DNA from: an uncultured Verrucomicrobia subdivision 3 bacterium
Lineage (GTDB): Bacteria; Verrucomicrobiota; Verrucomicrobiia; Limisphaerales; UBA11358
Assembly (NCBI GenBank): GCA_903911825.1
Contig: CAIWFB010000194.1
Span: 2,070 to 66,069 of the forward strand
DNA: 64,000 bases
Reading direction: 5' to 3'
Shown here: piece by piece, positions 8,322 through 59,912 of the stretch
How the letters are laid out: the number at the start of each line of letters is the position of its first letter
How positions within the stretch are numbered: the first letter of the stretch is position 1
Translations under genes and position numbers: made by a program
Notes under the pieces: generated by a model
What the model was told of the DNA's origin: nothing
The model's database searches: none
Seen by the model: the letters and a program-made list of their open reading frames with translations, nothing else

Positions 8322-10463
8322 CTAATTTGTGACATTTACCGGCGCGACCTCAACGTGCGCGGCGCTGCTGGCGGTGCGGGTCAAATTGCGCGCTTCGAGA
8401 TGCACGAGGGCATTGATATCGAGAATCAAACCCACGCGACCATCTCCGAGAATCGCGGCCCCGGCGAGCAGATGGTTTTTGTAAACCATCATGTCGTTCA
8501 AATTTTTGATGACGACTTCCTGTTTATGCAGCAGGCCGTCCACGAGCAGGCAGCGCAAATCGTTACCCGCTTGCACGACCACCACGATTCCTTCCGACGC
8601 ATCCGTTTTGGTACGCGTGCCGGCGCTGAACAGTTCGTTCAGGCGCAGCAAGGGAATGATGCGGCCACGGACATTCACGACTTCCGCGCGGTTTTGCACG
8701 CGGGAAACCATGCCCGGCTGCGGGCGGAACGATTCGCGCACCGAGAGCGTCGGGAGGATGTAGCGTTCTTCGCCCACCTTGACGATGAAGCCGTCAATGA
8801 TGGCTAGCGTGAGCGGCAAACTGATTTTGAATAGCGTGCCCTTGCCAGTCTGCGACGAGATTTCCACGCGCCCACGGAGCCGTTCAATGTTTCGGCGCAC
8901 CACGTCGAGACCGACGCCGCGTCCGGAAAGATCGGTAATTTTTTCCGCTGTGGAAAAACCAGCGGCGAAGATGAAGTGAAAGATTTCTTCGTCCGAAAGT
9001 TTCGCGTCCGCTGCGACCAAGCCGCGCTCCACAGCTTTCTGAAAAATTTTATCTTTGTTCAATCCCGCGCCATCGTCTTCGATTTCCACCACAATGGTTC
9101 CGCCTTGATGATAGGCGCGCAAAGCCAGTGTGCCAGTGGGCGACTTGCCGGCGGCGACCCGCTTTTCGCTCGTCTCGATACCGTGATCCATGGAGTTACG
9201 GATCATGTGGAGCAAGGGATCGTTCAATTCTTCCACGACGCCGCGATCGAGTTCCGTGTCTTCGCCGGTCGTGATGAATTGCACTTTTTTGGAATGCTTC
9301 GCCCCGATGTCGCGCACGACGCGGGACATCTTTTGGAACACGCCGCGAATGGGCACCATGCGCAGCGACATGCTGACGCGCTGCAATTCTTTCGTGATAC
9401 GCCCGAGCTGCGCGATGTTGCGCACGACCTGCGGGTTCACATTGGAAAGTTCGTTCAGATTCTGGCCGACGAGCGATTGGGCGATGACCATTTCGCCGAC
9501 GAGATCGAGCAGGCCATCGAGCTTGCCGGTATCCACTTTGACGACGGAAGCGTGTTGTTTATCTGCGGCCGGGGCGTGTTCACCAGCCTCGACGGCAGCG
9601 GGCGTTGGGCCGGAAGTTTTGGCGGCGGCGACGGGTGCGGCATGCGCTTTGCCATCAATGATGTCCTGCGCCTCCATCTTCAAGTCGGCGGTCGAAATGA
9701 CAATCGCCTTCACGGGCCGCTTGCCGGTCAATTGACCTTCAATCTCATCAATGAACTGCTTGAGCACATCGCGGCCGCGCAAAATGGTTTCGATGACCGG
9801 CGCATCAATCACGATTTTGCCCTGCCGCGCCTGATCCAACAACGATTCGAGCACGTGCGCGAGGCGGTTGATGGGCAGCAAATTCAAAAATCCGGCGCCG
9901 CCTTTGAAGGTATGGAACGCGCGGAAAATCGTGTTCAACATCTCGGAATCGTCCGGCTGATTTTCCAAGACGAGGACGCCTTGTTCGATGTTGTCGAGGT
10001 GCTCGCGAGATTCGGTGATGAATTCCTGCAGCAACTCCGCGTCATCCGCCAAATTCAAGTTTAGTGGTGGATCATCCGTGTGGACAGTCGGGCTGTTCGG
10101 TTCGACGGGGGCCGCAGGCACGGGGGCCGTCGCCACAACCACGATGGGCTCATTCGCTACGGGCGGGGCAAGCTCGGGCATGGGCGGCGCTGCGCTGGCC
10201 AGCGCGCGGACTTGCACCAGCAAAACCTGCAACCAAGCGATGTCATCAAGGGAGAAATTCGCTCCGGATTCAACGATTTTCACCATGCGCTCCCAGGCAT
10301 CCGCACAGAAAGCCGTCAGCTTGGGAATATCTTTGGCCTCATCGCGGAGGTTGCCGATCAAATCCAGAATAGGAAATTGACCTTGGGTGTCTCCGGCCTT
10401 GGCGGTGGAGACTTCCACTGCCAATTGACCGGCCAATTTGATTATCCGACTCGCATCGCTCAT
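8322..10463 (-). CDS. cheA: Chemotaxis-type histidine kinase CheA
   Basis: Present are an Hpt motif (FRAFHTFKGGAGF), a dimerisation region, a HATPase domain (EDDGAGL, GRGVGLDVV) and a C-terminal CheW-like domain. An extra roughly 150-aa N-terminal region precedes Hpt. I set the start at the ATG at 10463; the track ORF starts at a TTG at 10493. Confidence 0.9.
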   Translation of the reverse strand: MSDASRIIKLAGQLAVEVSTAKAGDTQGQFPILDLIGNLRDEAKDIPKLTAFCADAWERMVKIVESGANFSLDDIAWLQVLLVQVRALASAAPPMPELAPPVANEPIVVVATAPVPAAPVEPNSPTVHTDDPPLNLNLADDAELLQEFITESREHLDNIEQGVLVLENQPDDSEMLNTIFRAFHTFKGGAGFLNLLPINRLAHVLESLLDQARQGKIVIDAPVIETILRGRDVLKQFIDEIEGQLTGKRPVKAIVISTADLKMEAQDIIDGKAHAAPVAAAKTSGPTPAAVEAGEHAPAADKQHASVVKVDTGKLDGLLDLVGEMVIAQSLVGQNLNELSNVNPQVVRNIAQLGRITKELQRVSMSLRMVPIRGVFQKMSRVVRDIGAKHSKKVQFITTGEDTELDRGVVEELNDPLLHMIRNSMDHGIETSEKRVAAGKSPTGTLALRAYHQGGTIVVEIEDDGAGLNKDKIFQKAVERGLVAADAKLSDEEIFHFIFAAGFSTAEKITDLSGRGVGLDVVRRNIERLRGRVEISSQTGKGTLFKISLPLTLAIIDGFIVKVGEERYILPTLSVRESFRPQPGMVSRVQNRAEVVNVRGRIIPLLRLNELFSAGTRTKTDASEGIVVVVQAGNDLRCLLVDGLLHKQEVVIKNLNDMMVYKNHLLAGAAILGDGRVGLILDINALVHLEARNLTRTASSAAHVEVAPVNVTN

Positions 10464-10539
10464 GTTCAGGGTTGTCGGACTCGGGTCCAACAAGGTTTCA
10501 TCGGCTAACCCTGAAAACGACTGAAGGAAAAACTCTGCC

Positions 10540-13174: not shown

Positions 13175-14949
13175 GTCAGGTTTCGGATGAAAAGGAACGT
13201 CTGGTCATCGGCCAACGGCGCCTCGCCGCGAAACGCCGCCAGTCGGGCGAGCAACGCTTGCTTGCCGGTGATGGCGTCGCGCGTTTGCGCGGCGGCTTCG
13301 GCGAACAGGCGGGTCAATTTATTTTCCGCGAGCATTTCACCGGTGGCATTGCGGAGTTCGCTCAAGCCATCGGTGTAAAGCAACGCCGCCGCGCCCGCCG
13401 CGAGCGCGGTGACCGTCTGCGGATACGTCGTGTCGGGTTCGATGCCGAGCGGAAAACCCGCGCTGCCGGGCGCGACGGCATCGGCTTCGCCCGCGCGCCA
13501 CACGAGCAATGGACAATGCCCGGCGCTGGCGGAGATGAGTTCGGCGCGGGCGGGATTCACATAAACCACTTTGGCGGTGATGAACATGTCCACGCGCGAC
13601 AGGTCGGGGAAGAGAATGCGATTGGCAGCGGCGAGCAATTCGCCCGGCGCGGAAAATAATTGGGGCATCGAACGAACGGTGCTGCGCAGCACGGCGGCGA
13701 AGAGCGCGGCGGGCACGCCTTTGCCCATGACATCGGCGATGACCAACAACACCGCGCCGTCGCTCGCAGGAATGGCATCGTAAAAATCACCCCCGACCTG
13801 ACGGGCACTTTCGCACGACGCGGCCAGCGCGAACGGCGGGCACGCGGGCAAATGCGCGGGGAGCAGCGAGCGTTGGATGTCGGCCGCAATCTGCAATTCC
13901 CGCTGCGTGACCTGCGTGCGCGTGCGGTCGTCGAGCAGGCGGGCATTGACGATCTGGATCGCGAAGAAATCGATGAACGAGTGGAGCAAGTTCACTTGCG
14001 CCGCCGTGAAAGGACGTTCCGCCGCGCGTCGCCCGAGTGTGGCGGTGCCGACGAGCTGATCCGCCACAAAAAACGCGTGGCAAACGCCATGGCCCAAGGG
14101 CATCAACGCACGGAGCGGGTCGCCTTCCGGCAGCGGTTCTTCGGGCCCGAACCAGATATCCTGGTGATTCCGCGCGGCACCAACTTCAGCAGCAGCGGAA
14201 TTTTTCCCCAACGCCACGGGCGGCAACTTGGCTCCGGTTTCCGGCGCGGAAAAAACCGTTTCCAATTGCGAGCCATCAGCGGAAACCAGGCGCAACACAG
14301 CGGCATCGGCTTCGGCGATCTGCATGAGATCGCGCAAGAGGCGCGGGGCGAATTCGCCCAAATCCGTCTGCACACCGAGCTCGGCACTGTAACGGAACAT
14401 GGCCACGAGACTTTCGTAGCTGGACGCCAGCTCGGCAGTCATCTCGGTCAGCGCGGTTTCGGCGTCGGCGAGTTTCTGCTGCAACTGGCTGACGTCGGGA
14501 AATAATTCATGGCCGCCCGCAGGCCGAGCGCGGCGCAGCACCAAAACATTTTCGGCCAAGCCGCGCAGATAGAAAATTTTATCCGTCAACGATTCCATCA
14601 AGTAGAGGCCGCGACCGTGCTCGGCGTCTTCTTCCGGCAACTTGATTTCCGTGGGCCACTCGAAGCCGGCAGTGTGATCGGTCACGCGCACTTCGATGTC
14701 GCGGGCACCACAGGAAACTTCGATGGCTACAGGAGATTTCCGCGCCTCGGGGCTGGCGTATTTGACGGCGTTGTTGGCCGCCTCGACGAGCGCGAGTTCC
14801 CACGCGCCCAGCTCGGCTTCGTTCAAACCGCGTTCCGCCAGCCAGCGGCCGACCTGCTGCGTGGCCCCGCGCACGGCGATAAATTCGCACGGAATTTCCA
14901 GGCGCAACACGATCCGATGGTCGGCATTGGGGCTGTTGGCGGCACTCAT
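13171..14949 (-). CDS. Fusion protein: RsbW-like HATPase (anti-sigma serine kinase type) + GAF + PP2C/SpoIIE phosphatase
   Basis: The N-terminus reads ELALVEAANNAVKYA...VTDHTAGF...GRGLYLM (HATPase_c_2 type). The centre is GAF-like. The C-terminus has PP2C motifs (GGDFYD, VIADVMGKGVPAA, TDGLSE, DDQTFL). I set the start at the ATG at 14949, which makes an ATGA overlap with the upstream kinase stop; the longer track ORF has an Arg-rich, implausible leader. Confidence 0.85.
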   Translation of the reverse strand: MSAANSPNADHRIVLRLEIPCEFIAVRGATQQVGRWLAERGLNEAELGAWELALVEAANNAVKYASPEARKSPVAIEVSCGARDIEVRVTDHTAGFEWPTEIKLPEEDAEHGRGLYLMESLTDKIFYLRGLAENVLVLRRARPAGGHELFPDVSQLQQKLADAETALTEMTAELASSYESLVAMFRYSAELGVQTDLGEFAPRLLRDLMQIAEADAAVLRLVSADGSQLETVFSAPETGAKLPPVALGKNSAAAEVGAARNHQDIWFGPEEPLPEGDPLRALMPLGHGVCHAFFVADQLVGTATLGRRAAERPFTAAQVNLLHSFIDFFAIQIVNARLLDDRTRTQVTQRELQIAADIQRSLLPAHLPACPPFALAASCESARQVGGDFYDAIPASDGAVLLVIADVMGKGVPAALFAAVLRSTVRSMPQLFSAPGELLAAANRILFPDLSRVDMFITAKVVYVNPARAELISASAGHCPLLVWRAGEADAVAPGSAGFPLGIEPDTTYPQTVTALAAGAAALLYTDGLSELRNATGEMLAENKLTRLFAEAAAQTRDAITGKQALLARLAAFRGEAPLADDQTFLFIRNLT

Positions 14950-17900
14950 AAGCGCGTTTGTTGACGAAGCCAGTGCTGAAGTTTTTCCGCCGCGCCCGGG
15001 GTTTGCGCGGAAATTTTTTCCAGTTCTCGAATCACTCGTTGGGCGTCGCGGCCTTCGGACGCATCTTCGACGGCGAGGAATAATTCGCCTAGCGCATTCA
15101 GGCCGAACAAGCGCGCCAAGCCTTTGAGCGAATGCGCGGCGCGCTGCAATTCGGGCCATTGTTCATCAACATGCAAGCGGTTGAGTTCGGACAGTCGCTC
15201 GGGTAATTCCGCCAGAAAATCACTGGCCATTTCCACAACGGATTGGCGATCCAGTTCGGTGCACAGTTGTTCGAGTCGCGTGGGATTGAAGTCCTCGTGC
15301 GAACCATCATCGGCGGGCACGGCGGCGAGGAGCGCCTGGTAAAGTTGCTGCGCGGTGAACGGCTTGGCGAGGTAATCGTCCATGCCCGCCGCGAGGCAAC
15401 GCTCGCGTTCGCCGACAAGCGCGTTGGCGGTGAGGGCGATGATGCGGACGTGGCGCTGGGGATTTTTCTCGGCTTCGATTTTGCGAATGGCGGCGGTGGC
15501 TTCGAGGCCGTCGAGCTCGGGCATGTTGCAATCCATGAGCACGGCATCAAATTCGCCGAGAATGAAACGATCCACGACTTCGCGACCGTTCACGGTCCAA
15601 TCCGCTTTGGCGCCGAAGGACGCGAGCATCAATTGGCCGAGCTTGCGGTTGAAAGGATGATCTTCCGCCGCGAGAATTTTTAGTCCGGAAATGGGCGTTT
15701 GCACCGCGCCGCTGGGGTCGCGGCGGCGGAGCTCGGTTTCCGTGACGGGCGTCGCGGGGCGGATGGCTTCAACTTTCTCGCGGAGCACGAGGCTGACGAG
15801 CGCGTTGAAAAACGGTTCTTCTTTGGCTGGCTTGAGCAAGACGCTGGCAAAACTGGCGATCTCTTTTTCATCCGCTCCGACACTGGCGGTGGGGCTGGAG
15901 AGCAAAATGAATTGCACCTGTTCGCGGCTCGCCACGATCAGATCGCGCAACTCGGCGCCGCCGGTGATGAGCATTTCATCGTCCAGCAACACCACGGGAA
16001 TCGGCGCGGTGCGCGAGCCGTGTTGGAGTTCGCGAAACAGTTCCGGCACGGTGGTGGTGGCCCGATTTTCCACGCCCCAACCGCGCAGTTGTTCGCCGAG
16101 GGATTCACGCAGATTCGCACTGGTGGCAGCGATCAAAACGCGCAAAAAAACCAGGCCGGGAAAATTGTGAGGTAACGGCGCGGTCGCAGCGGGGGCCAAC
16201 GGTAATTCAAACCAGAAGGTGGAACCCGCGCCGCTGGTGCTGGTCACGCCGATCTTGCCGCCCATCAATTCCACGATTTTACGGGAAATGGCGAGGCCGA
16301 GGCCGGTGCCGCCAAATTTCCGCGACGACGAGGTGTCGGCCTGCGTGAACGGCTGAAATAATTTTTTGATCTGTTCGGCCGTCAAGCCGATGCCGGTGTC
16401 GGTGACTTCAAAGCGCAAATTAATCTTGCCCGGCAAGGCGAGCAGTGATTCCACGCGCACGGTGACTTCGCCGTGCTCGGTGAATTTCACGCCGTTGCCG
16501 ACGAGGTTGAGCAGCACTTGTCGCAAGCGCGCGGCGTCGCCGACCACGCGAGCGGGCACGGTGCGTTGGACGATAGCGGTGAGGCCAAGCGATTTTCCAG
16601 GCTCGCGCGAAACGGAATTTTCCAGCACGCTATCAATGACGGCGCGCAGGGAAAACTCCTCCTGCGCGATATTCATTTTCCCCGCTTCAATTTTGGAAAA
16701 ATCGAGGACGTCGTTGATGACAAGGAGCAGAGAATTGGCGCTCTCGGCGGCGGCGCTGGCGAATTCGCGCTGGCGCGGGTCGAGACGCGTCTGGGTGAGC
16801 AGCTCAATCATGCCGAGAATGCCGGTGAGCGGCGTGCGAATCTCGTGGCTCATGTTCGCGAGAAATTCGCTCTTGGCGGCGTTCGCCCGATTAGCCTGCT
16901 CGGCGGCGGCGCTGGATTCATTCGCGGCGAACTGCAACTGGCGATTCACCTGTTCGAGCGCGGCCTTGGCTTCCTGCAAAGCGAGTTCCGCTTTTTTGCG
17001 CGGCGTGATGTTCTGGATGACGGCTTGAAATTCAGCGACTTTATCCGCGCTGGAATCGAGGCGACGCAAATTATATTGCTGCCATTCAATGTGGCCATCG
17101 GCAGCTTCGGCACGCCGATCGAAATTCAGCACCGGCTTTTCCTCGGGCAACTGGATGATGTGTTCCTGAAGCGTCCGCGCTTCGTTTTTGACGAGGTCGT
17201 GGTAGAAATTGGTGCCGAGTAATTCCGCCTCCAACTTGCCGTGGAACCGACAGAATGCCGGATTTACAAAGGTGATTTGGCCGTCGGGCCGAAAGCGGCA
17301 GATCAAATCTTCCTGGTCCGCGACGACCGCGCGCAGCCGTTTTTCGTTTTGCACCAGGTCCCGCTGAGCGCGGCGGCGCTCCGCAGCGGCGGCGGCGAGG
17401 AGGAGATTGGAAATCGCCAAAATGCCGATGTAGCTACCGACGAGCCGCAGGCTGTTGGCTTCATTGCCCGTCACGAACGGCCCGCTGCCCTGTTTCAGTG
17501 AATAGATCGCCAGCGTGGCGACGACTACCGTGCTCGTCGCCGCACCGCGCGGGCCAAAACGCAGCGCGCTCCACACTAGAAAGGGATAAGGCAGATAAGC
17601 CAGCGGATATTGTTGCGGCCCATAAACAAACCAGGTGTCGAACGCCAACAAGGTGCCGCCCACCAAGCCCGCCGCGCAGACCAAGGCTTCGAGACTACGA
17701 ACTAAATTCAAGCGCACCGAGGACGGCGCAGCCCACGTAATGAGGACCGGCGTGATCACCAGCGATGCCAAAGCGTTCGGCACCCACCAGGCTAACGTCA
17801 CCGGAAAAATGGCATCCCACGGAATTTTGCCGGCATACGCCAAGCCCACCGCCGTGAAACAGGCATTGACCGTGGTGCCGAGCACGCTCGCCAGCAGGAT

Positions 17901-18269
17901 GTAGCCCACCGCATCGCGCGTTTGCTCCATCGCATTATCGAAATTCACGAAGCGCTTCAGCAGATACGCACAGATGATCGCGCCAAAGGTGTTACCCAGC
18001 ACCAGGCCCAGCGTGGACAGACCCAGCGGGGCGCCACTCATGAAAGAAACTAAAACCACGCCCAGCGCGATCCCCGGCCAGTAGCCGTAGCCAAAAATGA
18101 GAATCGCTGCGAGCGCCACACCGGCGGCGGGCATCACTAATTGAGTGCTCCCAGCCAGAAAGGCGGCCTCCCGACCGAGCAACCCGCCCATAAAATAAAG
18201 CGCCATCAGCATCACCACGCGCGTAGCGGTGGTCAGGTGCGATTTTTGGGGGCGGTTCACGACGCCCAT
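14946..18269 (-). CDS. Hybrid sensor histidine kinase (MASE1 membrane domain-PAS-HisKA-HATPase-degenerate REC-REC-Hpt)
   Basis: The 1107-aa product has a multi-TM MASE1-like N-terminus, a PAS domain (FVNPAFCRFHG), an H-box (FLANMSHEIRTPL), G-boxes (DTGIGL, GGTGLGLAIS), a receiver (AVLMDCNMPELDG...LAKPF) and an Hpt (AAHSLKGLARLFG). Confidence 0.9.
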   Translation of the reverse strand: MGVVNRPQKSHLTTATRVVMLMALYFMGGLLGREAAFLAGSTQLVMPAAGVALAAILIFGYGYWPGIALGVVLVSFMSGAPLGLSTLGLVLGNTFGAIICAYLLKRFVNFDNAMEQTRDAVGYILLASVLGTTVNACFTAVGLAYAGKIPWDAIFPVTLAWWVPNALASLVITPVLITWAAPSSVRLNLVRSLEALVCAAGLVGGTLLAFDTWFVYGPQQYPLAYLPYPFLVWSALRFGPRGAATSTVVVATLAIYSLKQGSGPFVTGNEANSLRLVGSYIGILAISNLLLAAAAAERRRAQRDLVQNEKRLRAVVADQEDLICRFRPDGQITFVNPAFCRFHGKLEAELLGTNFYHDLVKNEARTLQEHIIQLPEEKPVLNFDRRAEAADGHIEWQQYNLRRLDSSADKVAEFQAVIQNITPRKKAELALQEAKAALEQVNRQLQFAANESSAAAEQANRANAAKSEFLANMSHEIRTPLTGILGMIELLTQTRLDPRQREFASAAAESANSLLLVINDVLDFSKIEAGKMNIAQEEFSLRAVIDSVLENSVSREPGKSLGLTAIVQRTVPARVVGDAARLRQVLLNLVGNGVKFTEHGEVTVRVESLLALPGKINLRFEVTDTGIGLTAEQIKKLFQPFTQADTSSSRKFGGTGLGLAISRKIVELMGGKIGVTSTSGAGSTFWFELPLAPAATAPLPHNFPGLVFLRVLIAATSANLRESLGEQLRGWGVENRATTTVPELFRELQHGSRTAPIPVVLLDDEMLITGGAELRDLIVASREQVQFILLSSPTASVGADEKEIASFASVLLKPAKEEPFFNALVSLVLREKVEAIRPATPVTETELRRRDPSGAVQTPISGLKILAAEDHPFNRKLGQLMLASFGAKADWTVNGREVVDRFILGEFDAVLMDCNMPELDGLEATAAIRKIEAEKNPQRHVRIIALTANALVGERERCLAAGMDDYLAKPFTAQQLYQALLAAVPADDGSHEDFNPTRLEQLCTELDRQSVVEMASDFLAELPERLSELNRLHVDEQWPELQRAAHSLKGLARLFGLNALGELFLAVEDASEGRDAQRVIRELEKISAQTPGAAEKLQHWLRQQTRL

Positions 18270-52930: not shown

Positions 52931-53722
52931 TTACCGCATCAGCGCCAAAATCAGCACGGCCAACGCGATGCGATAGAAACCAAACACATTGAACGTGTGT
53001 GTCTGGACGTAGCGCAACAGCCATTTCACGGCCACGAAGGAAACCGCCGCCGCCACTACCGTGGTCAGCATGAGCATGCCCCAATCTTCTTTCGGCGCGA
53101 GTGGAATGGGATGGTGTAAGGTCTTAAATATTTTCCAACCGCCGGCGGCAAGCATGGTGGGAATGCCGACGAGAAAGGAAAATTCTGTCGCCGCTGGACG
53201 ACTCAAGCCAAGCAGCAGCGCGAAAACAATCGTTGCGCCGGAGCGCGAGGTGCCAGGGCAGGTGCCGGCGAGCAATTGGCCGAAGGCGACGGCGAATACA
53301 ACCGCCCAAGTGATTTCATTACTCAACTTTTTACCGCGCAGGAAAAATTCCACGGCGAGAAACGCCAACCCGCCAACCAAGAGGGCGATAGCGATGGGCA
53401 CCGAACTGTCGGGTAGTTTAAAGCCTTTTTTATCGAGCACAAAACCCACGGCCCCGGTGATAAAAAAAGCGACAAAGATTTTTAACAGATACGACTGCGT
53501 TTCTTTGTCGCGCCATTCGAAGACAAATTTGTAAAGGCGTTCGGGAAAGAGCGGCAGCACGGCGATGACCGCGCCGCATTGGATGACGATGTTGAACAGA
53601 TCGCTCTTCTCGACCTTTAGCAGGTGTTCCGCCAGCAGCAGGTGTCCGGTGGAAGAGACGGGGATGAATTCAGTGATGCCCTCGACCACGCCGAGGATGA
53701 GATTAATGAGCCAGTCAGCCAT
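52931..53722 (-). CDS. uppP: Undecaprenyl-diphosphate phosphatase
   Basis: BacA/UppP motifs are present (GVVEGITEFIPVSSTGHL and PGTSRSGATI). It has 8 TM helices and is 263 aa long. Confidence 0.93.
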   Translation of the reverse strand: MADWLINLILGVVEGITEFIPVSSTGHLLLAEHLLKVEKSDLFNIVIQCGAVIAVLPLFPERLYKFVFEWRDKETQSYLLKIFVAFFITGAVGFVLDKKGFKLPDSSVPIAIALLVGGLAFLAVEFFLRGKKLSNEITWAVVFAVAFGQLLAGTCPGTSRSGATIVFALLLGLSRPAATEFSFLVGIPTMLAAGGWKIFKTLHHPIPLAPKEDWGMLMLTTVVAAAVSFVAVKWLLRYVQTHTFNVFGFYRIALAVLILALMR

Positions 53723-53763: not shown

Positions 53764-54153
53764 TTATTTTTTGCCCCAGAACGTTTTTGATTCTTCCCCG
53801 CGCTGCTTCACTTTGAGCTGGCCGAGAATGGCGTGCCACCCGATGTAAATCTTGTGCCATTGGGCTTCGAGGCCGCGCAGGGCGCCTTCACTCATCTCGC
53901 TGAGGTAGCGCAACGAGGGCGAATTGCCGATGAGCGTATGGATTTCGTCGCGCGTGGGCGATTGCACTTCGACGCTGGCAAAAATTAATTCCAGCTCCTG
54001 CACGATGATGCTTTTGATCTCGAGAAAATGGTTGTCATCCGCAGGGCCAAATTTTTTGGCGCGGGCGATGGTGATAAAGTGGTTGAACTGTTTCCAGCAT
54101 TCGATATGGGTCTCGATCTGGGTGACCAGTTGGTTGATTTCCTTGGAGGTCAT
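53764..54153 (-). CDS. Hypothetical helical protein (129 aa), last gene of the REC-PATAN operon
   Basis: Only the C-terminal 129 codons of track ORF 53764..55002 look protein-like (MTSKEINQLVTQIETHIECWKQFNHF...). The ATG at 54153 overlaps the upstream stop (ATGA). Confidence 0.55.
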   Translation of the reverse strand: MTSKEINQLVTQIETHIECWKQFNHFITIARAKKFGPADDNHFLEIKSIIVQELELIFASVEVQSPTRDEIHTLIGNSPSLRYLSEMSEGALRGLEAQWHKIYIGWHAILGQLKVKQRGEESKTFWGKK

Positions 54154-54470
54154 GAGCGTGAGGGGGTTGGCGTTGGCATCAACGCGGTTTGCGGAAAAAC
54201 GAAAATGATGGCACCACCGCGCAACTCGCGGGCGGTGAGGTGAACGCTGCCATAATGCAGGCTGACTTCGGCGAGCGGCATCTGCGCGGCGCGGGCTTCG
54301 CGGAAAATTTCCAGCACATCGCGGCCGACGTCGCGCAGCAATTTCTTTGGGTAGGCGGACGACACGGTCGAGGTGACGACCTGGCCATCGCGATCCACCG
54401 TGATGGTGCCGGTGGGCAATTGCTGCACGGCGGCATTGCCGCCCCCGAATAATTTTTTTAAGAATCCCAT
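54150..54470 (-). CDS. Hypothetical small protein (106 aa)
   Basis: It reads MGFLKKLFGGG...TGTITVDRDGQVVTSTV...LTARELRGGAIIFVFP. It overlaps the upstream gene by 13 nt and the downstream gene by 4 nt. Confidence 0.55.
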   Translation of the reverse strand: MGFLKKLFGGGNAAVQQLPTGTITVDRDGQVVTSTVSSAYPKKLLRDVGRDVLEIFREARAAQMPLAEVSLHYGSVHLTARELRGGAIIFVFPQTALMPTPTPSRS

Positions 54471-55531
54471 GACGCAACAAGTTTACGGCTTTTTTCTGCA
54501 AGCTGTTCGGTGGCCTCGGGGGGCCAGCCCACGAGGAATACGCGGTCGCCGCGCTGCAACATGATGACCTGGCGTTCCATATTTTGTCCGGCAACGTGGG
54601 CGAGCGGTCCGGCCCCGATCCGCTCACCGAGACGACGAGCGATTTTGGCGGTGGAACGCGCCCATTTGGCCATGGCGGCGGCGTTTTGCGTGCCGAGCAC
54701 CTCGGGTTCGCCATGACCTTCCGGCGGAATGGCGATGACAAACTCGGCGCCTTCGCGCGTGAGTTGCGAAAGTTTCCACATCGTTTTACGATGACTATTG
54801 GTCTCGGCCGTCTCGGGCGTTTCGAGCGCGGGATTTTCCGCTTCATCCATCGTCTGCGCCGATTCGAGCAAGAGCGCATTGACCGGTTTATGAATGGTGC
54901 GTTCGCGCTGCGGTTCCGGTGGCAGATTTTCAAACGTGCCGGTCTTCCAAGCGAGCAGCCGTTGAAAAGCCATTTCACCGCGTGCGCCGTCGAGTTCGGC
55001 ATCGATCAATTCCCCATCCTGCAACCATAGTTTCGCCACGAGCGGCCCACGCGTGATGCGCAGCACTGTGGACGTGCGCGAGAGACATTCCATCTGGATG
55101 ATGTCCATCAGGCTCTTGCTTTGGATGCCGCGAAAGCCGACTTCATTTTCGCGCCCGAGCAACGATTCCAAGCATTCGTTGAACTGCTTGGCGCTCCGCT
55201 GCATTTCAGTTTTGAGCCAGAATAAATCCACGCCTAACGCGTAGGCACGCGAACGAAAATCTTCATCTTCCAACCCGCTCAACACCACGGTGCGGACATC
55301 GGGAAATTGGCGGCGCACGATGGCGAGCATCTGTAAGCCGTCAATGCGCGGCATTTTCAGATCACAGATGAGCAGGCGCACGGGTTCGGTTTCCAGCAAA
55401 GCCAGCGCCCGTTTAGCGGTATTAGCGGTGAGGATTTCCGGGTGACTTGGTAAATCCGCAAATAGGTCGCGACACAGCGCGAGCCAATCGGCGTCATCAT
55501 CCAGCAACAAGATTTTATGGCGTTTATCCAT
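54458..55531 (-). CDS. Response regulator with PATAN/DUF4388 domain and a Roadblock/LC7-like C-terminal domain
   Basis: The REC domain reads ILLLDDD...LLICDLKMPRIDG...VVLSG. The DUF4388 pattern reads GFRGIQSKSLMDIIQMECLSRTSTVLRITRGPLVAKLWLQDGELIDAEL.GARGEMAFQRLLAWKTGTFE. The C-terminus (FVIAIPPEGHGEPEVLG...QVIMLQRGDRVFLVGW) is Roadblock-like, which is a tentative call. Confidence 0.78.
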   Translation of the reverse strand: MDKRHKILLLDDDADWLALCRDLFADLPSHPEILTANTAKRALALLETEPVRLLICDLKMPRIDGLQMLAIVRRQFPDVRTVVLSGLEDEDFRSRAYALGVDLFWLKTEMQRSAKQFNECLESLLGRENEVGFRGIQSKSLMDIIQMECLSRTSTVLRITRGPLVAKLWLQDGELIDAELDGARGEMAFQRLLAWKTGTFENLPPEPQRERTIHKPVNALLLESAQTMDEAENPALETPETAETNSHRKTMWKLSQLTREGAEFVIAIPPEGHGEPEVLGTQNAAAMAKWARSTAKIARRLGERIGAGPLAHVAGQNMERQVIMLQRGDRVFLVGWPPEATEQLAEKSRKLVASWDS

Positions 55532-55790
55532 TTCTGATTTTTCTAACCGCTAACCGCGGCGGTTGGCAAACACAAGCGCGAAAACTACGAACTTCACATA
55601 GCAATCCGCGTTCCCTGCTGGAATCAGCGATTTTACGCGTAAATGGGACATTTCCCAAAGCCACGAGTCCTACCGTGGGACAAGCCCTTAACCTTTTGTG
55701 CGGCGAACCGAAGTCTAAGGTCGTGGCGCGGATTCTGCTGAATAACGCCAGAACGGTCAGGCGGACGGTTCAAACCAAACAAAAAATGTC

Positions 55791-57530
55791 ATGGCTATCT
55801 CGGTGAAATCTAAATTTGCAGGTCTGCTGCGCGGCTTGTTGCGGCAGATGGACAGCCCGGAAACTCCCCGGCCAGTTACTGCCGCCGTGCCGCCAGCCCA
55901 CTCGGCTGCCAGCCCCGTTGCGCCCACTGTTTCCACCGCCAAAACTACTCCCGCGACCACCGCTGCCACCGCGCTGGCGGAAAACGAAATTGATATTCCG
56001 CTCGCTTCCGTCGTCAACGGTTTGCCGATGGAACTGCGCGCCAAGTTAATGTCTGCCCCCAGTCCGAACGCCACGATTCGCCTGACCGCTGATACCGTCA
56101 TCAGCCAACTCGGTTTCGGGGCCGTGAAAATTTCGTTTGGCGAATTGCGCCAACTGGCTCCTGGATTATTTGCCAATTCCGGAGGTGAACACGATAACCG
56201 CCCGGTTAGCCTGCCGTTGCAAGAAATTCTTTCTCGCGTGAATCCGGCCTTGCTCAACCGCCGCCAAGTCAAAAAAGTGGAAGTGGCCGACGAGATTGCC
56301 GGACCGTTCGGGGAACGTGGTCGCGGCGTCGCTTTTACCACCAACCCGTTGAAGGCGCCAATTGCCCCAGCCAACTTGACCCCACATCTGCCGCCGCCAG
56401 TAACCGCACCCGAACCCTCGGTCCCCATCACTTTTAAGTCTCGCGAAATCACGCCTGCACCAGCAACGCCAGCGCGCGCCCTCACCCCAACCCCCAATGG
56501 CAATGGGCATACCGACCTTTTCCCCCTGCCGCCCGGCTTGAAATTAACGCCGCCCACCAATGGTCAGGGCAGTCATCACGGAAGCAACTCGGTTCCCAAT
56601 TCGCCACTCACTCCCTACGGCCTGAAAATCACGGCGACCCCCGCGTTCGCGGCCACCCCGATCGTCCCGGAAGCGCCAGCAGCACCGACCATCTTTACGA
56701 CGCTCGCCGATCTTTCCGAAAATTGGCCCGCCGAATTACGGAACGAAATCATGCGTTCCCCGCTCGCTAATGTCAGCGTGCCCTTGCCCGGCGACATCAT
56801 CGAACCCGGCTTAAAGCGCGGCCGCGTGGCGATGTCCTGGAAACAATTACGCACGCTGGCGCAGCCGAGTTCGGCGCCCTCGCCCAACGATCATCTGGAA
56901 TTGGAACTGCCGTTGAAAATCATCGCGCCGATGTTCCTCGCCGCGAAGAAAAACGTTTCGCGTCCCCAAGCGAAAGTCGCCGTGACGTCAGACATTCCAG
57001 ATTTATTTTTCGGTTTCCCGCAACCCACGGCACCCGCACCAGCGGCCGTTGTGCCGCCGCTGCCGAAATCGCAGGACACCAATTTTTATGTCTGGGGCGA
57101 AAAAGGCGAAGCCCCGCAATTGGATGAAGCCGGTTTGCGCCGAGGCGAAAATCCGCAGACGGATTTCTTGAGTCGTCAAGCGCACCCCAAAGAAGTCGTC
57201 GCCCGCGCCGCCGCTTTGCCAGGCGTGGCCGGAGCCGTGGTAGCGCTGCCGGATGGCTTGCGCGTGGCCAGCCAGGTGCCGACCGAATTGAATGCCGACA
57301 CACTCGCGGCTTTTCTCCCGCAGATTTTTGAACGCGTGAACCAAAGCACCCGCGAGTTGCGCATGGGCACTTTGAACAATGTCTGCTTCACCGTCGGCAA
57401 CGTCCCATGGAAAATTTTCCGCGTGAACTCCGTTTACTTTGCCGCGTTTGGCCGAGCCGGAGAAGGTTTACCGACCGCCCAACTCGCGCAACTCGCTATC
57501 GAACTCGATCGTAAAAAATCTCAACTCTAA
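55791..57530 (+). CDS. Proline-rich protein with a duplicated N-terminal module and a C-terminal Roadblock/LC7 domain
   Basis: The 579-aa product has internal repeats at aa 67-155 and 301-386 separated by Pro-rich linkers. The C-terminus (aa ~466-572: VVARAAALPGVAGAVVALPDGLRVAS...VCFTVGNVPWKIFRVNSVYFAAFG) fits Roadblock/LC7. Confidence 0.7.
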   Translation: MAISVKSKFAGLLRGLLRQMDSPETPRPVTAAVPPAHSAASPVAPTVSTAKTTPATTAATALAENEIDIPLASVVNGLPMELRAKLMSAPSPNATIRLTADTVISQLGFGAVKISFGELRQLAPGLFANSGGEHDNRPVSLPLQEILSRVNPALLNRRQVKKVEVADEIAGPFGERGRGVAFTTNPLKAPIAPANLTPHLPPPVTAPEPSVPITFKSREITPAPATPARALTPTPNGNGHTDLFPLPPGLKLTPPTNGQGSHHGSNSVPNSPLTPYGLKITATPAFAATPIVPEAPAAPTIFTTLADLSENWPAELRNEIMRSPLANVSVPLPGDIIEPGLKRGRVAMSWKQLRTLAQPSSAPSPNDHLELELPLKIIAPMFLAAKKNVSRPQAKVAVTSDIPDLFFGFPQPTAPAPAAVVPPLPKSQDTNFYVWGEKGEAPQLDEAGLRRGENPQTDFLSRQAHPKEVVARAAALPGVAGAVVALPDGLRVASQVPTELNADTLAAFLPQIFERVNQSTRELRMGTLNNVCFTVGNVPWKIFRVNSVYFAAFGRAGEGLPTAQLAQLAIELDRKKSQL

Positions 57531-57536
57531 AAAATT

Positions 57537-58151
57537 ATGGCCATCATCAATCAAGCCACCAAAGAACTGCAGGTCAAAATCGTTTATTACGGCCCGGCGA
57601 TGGGCGGTAAGACCACCAACCTGGTGCAGGTGCACGACCACGTGCAAACCGCCGCCGGCAACAAAGGCAAGCTCGTGTCGCTCGCCACGAGTTCCGACCG
57701 CACGTTGTTCTTCGATTTTCTGCCCATCGAAGCGATGACGATCAAAGGTTTCAAAACCAAGTTCCAACTTTACACCGTGCCCGGTCAGGTGATCTATAAC
57801 ACCACGCGCCAATTGGTTTTGCGCGGCGTCGACGGCATCGTGTTCGTAGCCGATTCGCAATACGAAAAAATGCCGGAGAACGTGGAAAGTTTTCAGAACC
57901 TCGTGGACAACTTGAACACGTTGAAGTTGAACCTCGCGGAAATTCCTTACGTTCTCCAATACAACAAGCGCGATTTGCCGAATGCCGCGCCGACGGAATA
58001 CATGGATTTTCTCCTGAACAACCGCGACGTGCAGGTGCCGTCGTTCGGTGGCACAGCGCACAAATGCGAAGGCGTGTTCGAAAGTTTGAACATGATCACG
58101 CGGATGTTGCTCCAGAAATTTATCAACCAAAGCGTTCCACAATACGCTTGA
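57537..58151 (+). CDS. mglA: Ras-like small GTPase MglA
   Basis: It is colinear with Myxococcus and Thermus MglA: KIVYYGPAMGGKTTNL, SDRTLFFDFLP, KFQLYTVPGQVIYN, GVDGIVFVADSQ, YVLQYNKRDLPNA and GVFESL. Confidence 0.92.
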   Translation: MAIINQATKELQVKIVYYGPAMGGKTTNLVQVHDHVQTAAGNKGKLVSLATSSDRTLFFDFLPIEAMTIKGFKTKFQLYTVPGQVIYNTTRQLVLRGVDGIVFVADSQYEKMPENVESFQNLVDNLNTLKLNLAEIPYVLQYNKRDLPNAAPTEYMDFLLNNRDVQVPSFGGTAHKCEGVFESLNMITRMLLQKFINQSVPQYA

Positions 58152-58154
58152 GCC

Positions 58155-58634
58155 ATGCCCACACTGCCCCAATTGATCGAAGACGACATGCTGCGCTTGG
58201 ACGCCGCGCTGGCGGAGTTCGTCGCGCTGGCCGACGCTACGGCGGCGTTGGTGATTGATAAAGGCGGATTCCTTCTCGCGCAGCGCGGCGATGACAGTTT
58301 GCTCGACTTCACCACCATCGGCGCGCTGGCTTCCGGTGCGTTCATGGCCAATCAAACCATCGCGGGTCTGGTGCATGAAAAGAATTTCAACAGCATTTAT
58401 CAGCAAGGCGAAAAGGTCAGCATGCTCGTCTGTGATGTGGATGAACATTGCCTGCTGGTCGCGATTTTCCCGTCGCAATTCGGCGTAGGCGTGGTGCGTT
58501 ATTTTGCTAACCAAGCCATCAGCCGCGTCGCCGCCCAAATGGTAGTGGCGGGCGAACGGGCGCCCGGACGTGGCTTGGATTTGTCCGTCTTGAACATGGC
58601 GAATCCGCAAGAGCTTTTTCGGAAGAAAATTTAA
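58155..58634 (+). CDS. mglB: MglB (Roadblock/LC7-family GAP of MglA)
   Basis: The 159-aa product lies 3 nt after mglA. The pattern ALVIDKGGFLLAQRG...TTIGALASGAFMANQTIAGLV...SMLVCDVDEHCLLVAIF...GVGVVRY is colinear with M. xanthus MglB. Confidence 0.85.
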   Translation: MPTLPQLIEDDMLRLDAALAEFVALADATAALVIDKGGFLLAQRGDDSLLDFTTIGALASGAFMANQTIAGLVHEKNFNSIYQQGEKVSMLVCDVDEHCLLVAIFPSQFGVGVVRYFANQAISRVAAQMVVAGERAPGRGLDLSVLNMANPQELFRKKI

Positions 58635-58643
58635 CGGAGGTTT

Positions 58644-59912
58644 ATGGATACCGCACAACAAACCAATGACCTGAACCGCGTCTTGACTGCGCTACTGCAA
58701 AGCGCTGGGGGCATTTCTGATTTGCTTTTTGTGCCGGGCAAACCGCCCCAAACCGAAGTCTATGGAGCACTGGAAACGCCGGATATCGGTGAACCGGTGC
58801 TGACGGGACTGCGCATCGAAGGTTTCGCCAGGGTCATCATGAAAGGCAACGTCAAGTTGCAACAAGATTTGACAGAGCGCGGATCATGCGATTGCAGCTA
58901 TACGTTGGGTGAGGCGAACCGTTTTCGCGTGAACATCTATCGTCAAAACGGAAGTTTCGCGATGGTCCTACGCCGGTTATCCACTTCGGTGCCCTCGCTC
59001 CAATCGCTCGGTCTGGCACCGATTTTTGCGGATCTCATCAAAGAGAAAAACGGCCTCGTGTTCGTGACCGGCGGTTCGGGCAATGGCAAAACCACCACGT
59101 TGGCGGCGCTGTTGAACGAAATCAATCAGACGAGTAAAGTTCATGTAGTGACGTTGGAAGACCCGATTGAATTTCTGCACCCGCAATTGAACTCCACGTT
59201 CAGCCAACGCGAACTGGGGCGGGATTTTTTTAATTTCCCCGACGGTTTGCGCGCCGCTTTACGGCAAGCGCCGAAAGTGATTTTTGTTGGTGAAATCCGC
59301 GATCGTGAGACGTTGGAGATTGCGCTCACAGCGGGCGAAACGGGGCATCTGGTTTTTAGCACACTGCACACGATCAGCGCGGGCCAGACGATCAACCGCA
59401 TTCTCGGGATGTTCAATAAGGACGAGGAGCAACTGGTGCGCGAGCGCTTGGCGGCTTCGCTACGCTACATCATCGGCCAGCGTTTGGTGCCGAAGCTGGA
59501 TGGCGGCCGACAATTGATCACAGAATTGATGGGCAGCAGCCTGCGCACGCGCGAAGCGATTGAGTTGGGGGAAAACGAAAATCGCCGCTTGCATGATATT
59601 ATTGAAGCCGGATCAAATGCCGGATGGCACAGCTTTGAGCAATCTTTGCTGAAAGCTTACGAAGAAAAATTGATTTCGGAGGAAACCGCCCAACTCTACT
59701 GCATCAATAAACCCAAGATGCGCCAACGTTTGGATTCGGCCAATAGCCGCCAACAACGTCCAGCCAAATCTACTCAAACAGCGCAAATGATCGTGGTGCC
59801 TGCCGCCGCAAAGCCGGTCCTACCACCCATTCTGCCGCAACCAGAGCCGGCCGAGATTACGAAACCTTCCGGGCCCATGTCCATGGTCTCTTCGATGATG
59901 GGCTTGCTGTAG
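58644..59912 (+). CDS. PilT/PilU-family type IV pilus retraction-type ATPase with a Pro-rich C-terminal extension
   Basis: It has Walker A (VTGGSGNGKTTT), an Asp box (TLEDPIEF), Walker B (VIFVGEIRD) and a His box (TGHLVFSTLHT). A tail of about 60 aa follows (PAAAKPVLPPILPQPEPAEI). Confidence 0.88.
   Translation: MDTAQQTNDLNRVLTALLQSAGGISDLLFVPGKPPQTEVYGALETPDIGEPVLTGLRIEGFARVIMKGNVKLQQDLTERGSCDCSYTLGEANRFRVNIYRQNGSFAMVLRRLSTSVPSLQSLGLAPIFADLIKEKNGLVFVTGGSGNGKTTTLAALLNEINQTSKVHVVTLEDPIEFLHPQLNSTFSQRELGRDFFNFPDGLRAALRQAPKVIFVGEIRDRETLEIALTAGETGHLVFSTLHTISAGQTINRILGMFNKDEEQLVRERLAASLRYIIGQRLVPKLDGGRQLITELMGSSLRTREAIELGENENRRLHDIIEAGSNAGWHSFEQSLLKAYEEKLISEETAQLYCINKPKMRQRLDSANSRQQRPAKSTQTAQMIVVPAAAKPVLPPILPQPEPAEITKPSGPMSMVSSMMGLL

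Follow-up and report, generated by a model that had tools for sequence, protein, structure and literature searches.

The closest described system to the genes considered here is the polarity module of Myxococcus xanthus, which comprises the small GTPase MglA together with MglB, MglC, RomR/RomX and RomY; to our knowledge, the route from signal input to the MglA switch has been established for no other system. RomR combines a receiver (REC) domain with Pro-rich and Glu-rich regions, and its small partner RomX binds MglA-GTP. Roadblock domains, as in MglB, LAMTOR and Asgard proteins, act as dimers and form platforms for small GTPases. Here we analyse a locus in a 64,000-nucleotide stretch of DNA (the window) from an uncultured Verrucomicrobia subdivision 3 bacterium (GenBank assembly GCA_903911825.1, contig CAIWFB010000194.1, positions 2,070 to 66,069), in which three overlapping genes, denoted A, B and C, lie divergently to an operon that carries a gene denoted D, mglA and mglB. 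We consider A-B-C as a candidate accessory module of the MglA/MglB polarity switch.

PATAN (DUF4388) is a further domain encoded at this locus. The clustering of PATAN, Roadblock and MglA genes has been known since 2006, and the mode of their connection has not. PMC4316618, with reference to Makarova 2006, places PATAN genes near mglA and mglB. In the cyanobacterial proteins PatA, PixE and PixG, PATAN and a phosphorylatable receiver are parts of one protein, and for PixE a membrane-proximal role in pilus polarity has been shown. Both PilB1 and the membrane are bound by the PixE PATAN domain (bioRxiv 10.1101/2021.06.11.447907).

The locus shares with the Myxococcus module an MglA-type GTPase with a TVPGQ motif and its MglB, predicted additional Roadblock-fold partners (compare MglC), a receiver protein that has a small helical protein as its partner (RomR/RomX being comparable in architecture only), and PilT and pilus genes in the neighbourhood. 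Unlike in Myxococcus, the receiver is fused to a PATAN and a Roadblock-like domain, B is predicted to lack helix alpha1 and to carry a membrane-type peptide, C is of a family unrelated to theirs, D combines a Roadblock with Pro-rich sequence, and the lineage is Verrucomicrobia subdivision 3. The parts are similar in fold to those of the Myxococcus module but different in family. Scans of Pfam and NCBIfam yielded no match to the RomR, RomX or MglC families, although these libraries may lack models of RomR and RomX. With the PatA-type proteins the locus has in common the union of PATAN and receiver; in contrast to them, REC precedes PATAN, a Roadblock-like domain is added, and the partner genes are mglA and mglB instead of a Tax/Pix chemosensory operon. 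Full-text literature searches returned no description of the A-B-C operon or of a REC-PATAN-Roadblock protein.

Results

The locus is part of a metagenome-assembled genome of 3.9 Mb, from a soil or freshwater bacterium, that is 91.5% complete; the names of the organisms in which homologues occur point to Verrucomicrobia subdivision 3 / Limisphaerales. The positions of all features are given in Table 1. The ATG of B lies 13 nt within the 3' end of A, and the ATG of C shares the tetranucleotide ATGA with the stop codon of B. The start of the divergent gene D (55791) is separated from A-B-C by 259 bp. This arrangement agrees exactly with a preliminary description of the region, which had proposed a three-gene operon facing the mglA operon across a gap of that length, with two small open reading frames (ORFs) of 106 and 129 aa that overlap their upstream neighbours by 13 nt and by ATGA. 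In the ORF list the frame of C is open for 412 aa; we assign its true start to the ATG at 54153 because the homologues all start there. Comparison of 26 loci revealed that the 13-nt overlap between A and B is retained in 23 and the ATGA overlap between B and C in about half.

Genes B and C have more than 1,000 relatives each, all annotated as hypothetical and none with a Pfam domain. The ratio of nonsynonymous to synonymous substitution rates (dN/dS), determined over 61-79 pairs of relatives with the window sequence, took values of 0.16 (A), 0.23 (B) and 0.09 (C); those of MglA and MglB were 0.04 and 0.22. Since dS is about 0.75-1.26, close to saturation, these ratios are rough. A, B and C are true genes under purifying selection and not chance ORFs. 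The preliminary description had been willing to give up its reading if the small ORFs were not conserved; as they are conserved and their dN/dS is low, this objection falls away. Its three coupled genes likewise stand, in contrast to the end that it had placed at C: no terminator-like site was found in the 41-bp gap between C and uppP, and most loci across the order retain the succession A-B-C-uppP. Because of the missing terminator-like site, the operon probably comprises four genes, with uppP co-transcribed with A-B-C.

The product of A begins with a receiver that matches Pfam PF00072 with an E-value of 1e-15 (58.3 bits, cut-off 30.2). Residues D11, D12, D13, D57, S/T85, F/Y104 and K107 are kept in 84-90 of 90 orthologues, and with this pocket retained we read the domain as a working phospho-acceptor. 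From these pocket residues, A is predicted to be a phosphorylatable response regulator. The PATAN domain matches PF14332 with an E-value of 5.5e-15 (55.9 bits, cut-off 25) over profile positions 8-121 of 122; A accounts for one of four DUF4388/PATAN matches, which are spread over four contigs of the genome. PatA-type regulators carry an N-terminal PATAN and a C-terminal REC, and because the order is reversed in A, it is not a regulator of that type. A match to GGDEF_2 (E 0.098) was dismissed as noise.

The C-terminal domain of A was modelled with AlphaFold2 as part of the whole protein on an alignment of 90 orthologues (mean predicted local distance difference test score, pLDDT, of 80). In the model the tail is formed by helix 242-260, strands 264-268 and 277-279, helix 284-305, strands 313-316, 321-327 and 330-336, and helix 344-355, with pLDDT values of 83-91. 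This order of elements (alpha-beta-beta-alpha-beta-beta-beta-alpha) is that of Roadblock/LC7 proteins. The tail ends in a near-invariant S-W-D-S. Its profile found as best match among solved structures 7f8f_A, a Robl_LC7 domain-containing protein, over the whole domain (E 0.0027 with 29 sequences, E 0.014 with 90), and hhalign placed it in register with the Roadblock that Pfam detects in D (E 0.004). A single sequence of A gave no match to Pfam Robl_LC7 (PF03259), and among 29 orthologous tails searched as single sequences one matched it, weakly (E 0.05). In a Foldseek search with the whole A model, the 50 matches listed were all receivers or receiver-domain regulators (CheY, Spo0A, RssB, CheB, WspR), the receiver having swamped the tail. 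As judged from predicted topology and profile matches, the C-terminal domain of A is very probably a Roadblock domain.

The AlphaFold2 model of B has an overall pLDDT of 82.6 and values of 89-96 in core residues 21-90. Residues 21-93 are predicted to form a strand-strand-helix-strand-strand-strand fold, which lacks both helix alpha1 and the C-terminal helix of Roadblock proteins. In Foldseek against the PDB, the 50 best matches were, without exception, Roadblock, LAMTOR, LC7 or MglB structures, with E-values of 1.9e-5 to 8e-4 and template modelling (TM) scores of 0.49-0.60. The top match was the Asgard Roadblock 7yh1_A (E 1.9e-5, TM 0.60); LAMTOR/MP1-p14, dynein LC7 and MglB (3t1r, 6hjm) were also among them. 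The B profile had a single solved-structure match at E-values up to 10, the Roadblock/LC7 domain protein 7yh1_D, with a marginal E-value of 0.0064, and B matched nothing in Pfam or NCBIfam. We conclude that B is, by its predicted structure, a cryptic stand-alone Roadblock-fold protein without alpha1.

The models relate both domains to known Roadblock/LC7 proteins: B superposes on MglB, LAMTOR MP1/p14, dynein LC7 and Asgard Roadblock structures at a TM score of about 0.5-0.6, and the tail of A has their order of helices and strands. Unlike these proteins, the A tail and B fall under the Pfam Robl_LC7 threshold, and neither aligns with the local MglB, the hhalign probability being below 2% in both comparisons. 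Because the control comparison of MglB with the D Roadblock fails as well, these negatives are of low power and uninformative. A profile comparison of the A tail with B by hhalign likewise gave no match.

Throughout the genome, Pfam Robl_LC7 matches only mglB and the tail of D (26.2 bits, over the cut-off), both of which lie at this locus. Since B has a predicted Roadblock fold, the locus would hold four Roadblock-type domains (A tail, B, D and MglB). The preliminary description had counted three for one MglA, and this number has to be revised. Its reading of A as a complete receiver, a PATAN domain and a Roadblock-like C-terminal segment agrees with the conserved pocket, the Pfam score and the predicted topology; it would have been abandoned had structure prediction given the tail no Roadblock fold. 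Its statement that neither small protein is recognisable holds for C but not for B.

The first ten residues of B, MGFLKKLFGG, are unstructured in the model, and M1, G2 and L4 show a conservation of 90% or more. The hydrophobic moment of GFLKKLFGG is 0.41; that of the membrane-targeting peptide of Escherichia coli MinD is 0.48. The stretch resembles an amphipathic membrane-targeting peptide of the MinD type. Its conservation is confounded by the gene overlap, in which the S-W-D-S-stop of A pairs with the M-G-F-L of B; in distant orthologues, W-A-S-stop of A pairs with M-G-L-L of B.

C is predicted to be helical. It matched nothing in Pfam or NCBIfam and had no credible PDB match; Aar2, which provided the sole solved-structure profile matches (E 0.03 over 48 residues), was rejected. 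A search of 1.84 billion representative sequences with the C profile returned only 286 clusters at an E-value of at most 0.001, and Pfam scans of distant relatives, fusions and repeats found nothing. Distant relatives of 160-220 aa consist of the C domain followed by a C-terminal transmembrane helix and occur in a conserved neighbourhood of dnaE, the C-like gene, hup (HU), hisS and aspS. In operon-type C proteins, an aromatic and basic tail (FWGKK; SLFGKKK in relatives) stands in place of this helix. The tail and the transmembrane relatives together suggest that C is membrane-proximal. No transmembrane-anchored C paralogue was found in this genome, where the operon copy is the only one. The transmembrane relatives, an unnamed family of tail-anchored proteins for which there is no Pfam model, come from Omnitrophota and from another class of Verrucomicrobiota.

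B and C are at times joined. Four stop-free B-C fusion proteins of about 238 aa (P0250, P0255, P0264, P0300) were found in metagenomes and none in 200 genomes of the order. About 45 of the 149 genomes with both genes have B and C in one frame with just one stop codon (TAA, TGA or TAG) between them. Recoding of TGA as Trp or Gly (translation tables 4/25) is an unlikely origin of the fusions, since their linkers have no W or G at the junction. Being rare, the fusions serve as supporting evidence only. The C domain also occurs in two or three tandem copies per polypeptide (251-409 aa) with the basic aromatic tail kept (P0241, P0243); tandem open frames of 393-409 aa are present in genomes of two families (G253, G382, G420, G331).

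The A tail, B and C were found in an identical set of 35 of 41 relatives and occur together in 149 of 201 genomes drawn from the order. A co-occurrence profile with mglA, proposed as a check in the preliminary description, bore out the association: 138 of the 201 genomes carry both B/C and an orthologous MglA (74-98% identity), and 50 carry neither. B/C without an orthologous MglA occur in 11 genomes; the converse is seen in two, which are 57% and 82% complete. The tally was made by hand from the lists, and its sums match the totals of 149 for B/C and 143 reported for the MglA list. Three of the 50 genomes with neither (G033, G316 and G370, all of one family) carry only a divergent MglA of 57-59% identity, which suggests another MglA clade with other partners. 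Among the 11 genomes, the lack of MglA in G035 is due to truncation at a contig edge; in G022, the 6.5 kb upstream of A-B-C contain none of the genes D, mglA and mglB.

Neither the A tail nor B was detected in 200 genomes of the phylum outside the order; we found a single distant C, and 11 of these genomes have an MglA at 50-68% identity. In its distribution A-B-C follows the orthologous MglA, and we read it as an accessory of one MglA clade. The genomic order points in the same direction: mglB-mglA-D is divergent from A-B-C in practically all of the 80 genome loci with enough flanking sequence, and this order recurs in most loci at the level of the order and in the longer metagenome loci. Of these 80 loci, 16 contain pilT as well.

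The intergenic region between the divergent operons was compared across 64 aligned orthologous loci. It contains two sigma-54-like elements that face in opposite directions. In GGGAACGCGGATTGCT, which faces A, the core GG is conserved in 61-64 and TTGC in 58-62 of the 64 loci; in TGGCGCGGATTCTGCT, which faces D-mglA, TGGC and TGCT are conserved in 59-63. Between them lies the palindrome TTGTCCCACGGTAGGACT, whose half-sites are conserved in 60-64 loci; a further TGTCCCA copy at 55644-55650 is also a candidate activator site. The genome encodes rpoN. Taken alone, the sigma-54 pattern shows no enrichment in the window, where 13 matches were observed and 16 expected, and the weight given to the two elements comes from their conservation, position and orientation only. 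Both operons appear to be driven by putative sigma-54 promoters within one shared region.

Discussion

On balance, we read A-B-C as a lineage-specific accessory module that regulates the MglA/MglB polarity switch, and we consider this reading moderately probable. As Roadblock domains dimerise into platforms for small GTPases, the tail of A would pair with B, or each with itself, to give an MglB-like platform; that A and B are so closely coupled in translation suggests a joint assembly of the A tail with B. This platform would be anchored at the cytoplasmic membrane by the N-terminal peptide of B and by the tail of C, and the face of the B sheet that the missing alpha1 leaves open may be covered by C. 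Once a kinase of the CheA or hybrid type has phosphorylated D57, the PATAN and Roadblock parts would engage MglA differently, which would set where or when MglA is active. Phosphorylated A would probably also affect the type IV pilus motor, a link that we propose because the PATAN domain of PixE is reported to bind PilB1.

A more detailed version of the same proposal, which we put forward tentatively, is a heterodimer of the A tail and B that is anchored in the membrane and imitates the dimer of MglB. C would be its third subunit and would stand in for the alpha1 that B lacks, and phosphorylation of the A receiver would directly switch an action on MglA of the GTPase-activating (GAP), guanine nucleotide exchange (GEF) or anchoring type. 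If true, a single protein would connect two-component signalling with a bacterial Ras-like GTPase, and PATAN would gain a definite function.

Several observations weigh against an MglA-directed module. A-B-C lies away from mglA in three of 17 examined loci, and 11 of the 149 genomes with B/C have no MglA, among them G022 (93% complete), G265 and G305 (96% complete). The tabulated association is overstated because related genomes are not independent. The Roadblock assignment of the A tail is drawn from predicted topology and from profile E-values that are marginal (0.003-0.014), and since the A tail and B are unlike the local MglB in profiles, a GAP-like activity cannot be assumed. The putative membrane role of the B peptide is an analogy with MinD. 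Distant C relatives adjoin HU, hisS and aspS, with no GTPase genes there, and the CheA and hybrid kinase genes of the window are 36-45 kb from A and have no linkage to it.

Some of these points would fit an alternative in which A-B-C is an output or effector branch and does not regulate the GTPase cycle: in the manner of the cyanobacterial PatA-type regulators, PATAN would bind at the membrane to the motor that extends the pilus (PilB/PilC), dimerisation and membrane anchoring would be the only roles of the Roadblock parts and of C, and MglA and the phosphorelay would converge independently on the motor. By itself, the PixE PATAN domain binds PilB1, is membrane-localised and reverses phototaxis (bioRxiv 10.1101/2021.06.11.447907). 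At the present locus a gene for a PilT-like ATPase directly follows mglB, the genome encodes four ATPases of PilB/GspE size and several PilT-like ones, A-B-C is kept without MglA in some genomes, and the A tail and B are unlike MglB in profiles. Roadblock, however, is the classical fold that contacts GTPases of the MglA type, and the four such domains of the genome all lie around mglA. The phyletic tie is moreover to the orthologous MglA clade and not to pilus genes; with pilT in only 16 of 80 loci, the pilus motor falls outside the conserved core. We therefore regard this alternative as unlikely.

It is also conceivable that the adjacency to mglA is an inherited order without common function and that A-B-C acts together with uppP when the envelope grows or the cell divides, for instance as a PatA-like regulator at the site of division or growth, PatA of Anabaena reportedly interacting with the divisome. 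That uppP follows C after 41 bp without a terminator-like site in an order conserved across the order, that distant C relatives reside in housekeeping neighbourhoods (dnaE, hup, hisS, aspS) and that A-B-C can be unlinked from mglA would agree with this idea, but we consider it highly improbable, as 138 of the 149 B/C genomes have the orthologous MglA, that MglA occurs without B/C only in two incomplete genomes, the divergent layout and the shared conserved control region extend across many families, and two extra Roadblock-fold domains make little sense in undecaprenyl-phosphate recycling.

In A, REC, PATAN and Roadblock-like elements are united in a single polypeptide, which comes with two small proteins as obligate partners, and this arrangement is kept throughout an order of Verrucomicrobia that is mostly uncultured. 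It would add to the list of small-GTPase accessories a predicted cryptic Roadblock family and an unnamed, putatively membrane-linked helical family. With five or six soluble or peripheral proteins, the set is compact and suited to expression and in vitro tests.

Genomic context

The pilus machinery of the genome is represented by 12 matches to T2SSE ATPases, which include four of PilB/GspE size and several PilT-like ones, and by PilM. Two kinases encoded in the window, a full CheA and a hybrid kinase with a MASE1 domain, are candidate phosphodonors for A.

Table 1. Positions of genes, domains and predicted control elements in the 64,000-nucleotide window
Feature	Position	Strand	Description
Gene A	54458-55531	-	357 aa; REC-PATAN-Roadblock-like regulator; from ORF, Pfam, AlphaFold2 model and 90 aligned orthologues
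REC of A	55205-55513	-	residues 7-109; predicted phospho-acceptor D57; Pfam PF00072
PATAN (DUF4388) of A	54839-55114	-	residues 140-231; Pfam PF14332
Roadblock-like C-terminal domain of A	54467-54808	-	residues 242-355; from predicted topology and profile matches
Gene B	54150-54470	-	106 aa; amphipathic N-terminal peptide and predicted Roadblock-fold core (21-93)
Gene C	53764-54153	-	129 aa; predicted helical, unnamed family; invariant E-C-W-K-Q-F motif, FWGKK tail
uppP/bacA	52931-53722	-	Pfam BacA, E 3e-66; 41 bp downstream of C
Shared control region of the A-B-C and D-mglA operons	55532-55790	.	259 bp; blocks conserved in at least 80% of 64 aligned orthologous intergenic regions
Sigma-54-like -24/-12 element GGGAACGCGGATTGCT	55600-55615	-	about 70 nt upstream of A, facing A; match at 2 mismatches
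Palindrome TTGTCCCACGGTAGGACT (GTCC-N7-GGAC)	55666-55683	-	candidate activator site between the sigma-54-like elements
Sigma-54-like element TGGCGCGGATTCTGCT	55724-55739	+	about 52 nt upstream of D, facing D-mglA
Gene D	55791-57530	+	579 aa; Pro-rich, C-terminal Roadblock; Pfam Robl_LC7 at residues 468-530, E 7e-5
mglA	57537-58151	+	TVPGQ-type small GTPase; 74-98% identity across the order
mglB	58155-58634	+	Pfam Robl_LC7, 30.8 bits, match at 58206-58469
PilT-like ATPase gene	58644-59912	+	T2SSE match at 58920-59564
CheA	8322-10493	-	full; Hpt, dimerisation, ATPase and CheW domains by Pfam
Hybrid kinase	14946-18269	-	MASE1-PAS-HisKA-HATPase-REC-Hpt by Pfam

In a few loci of the same genus, the BacA at the position of uppP is only 27-29% identical and may be a different paralogue.

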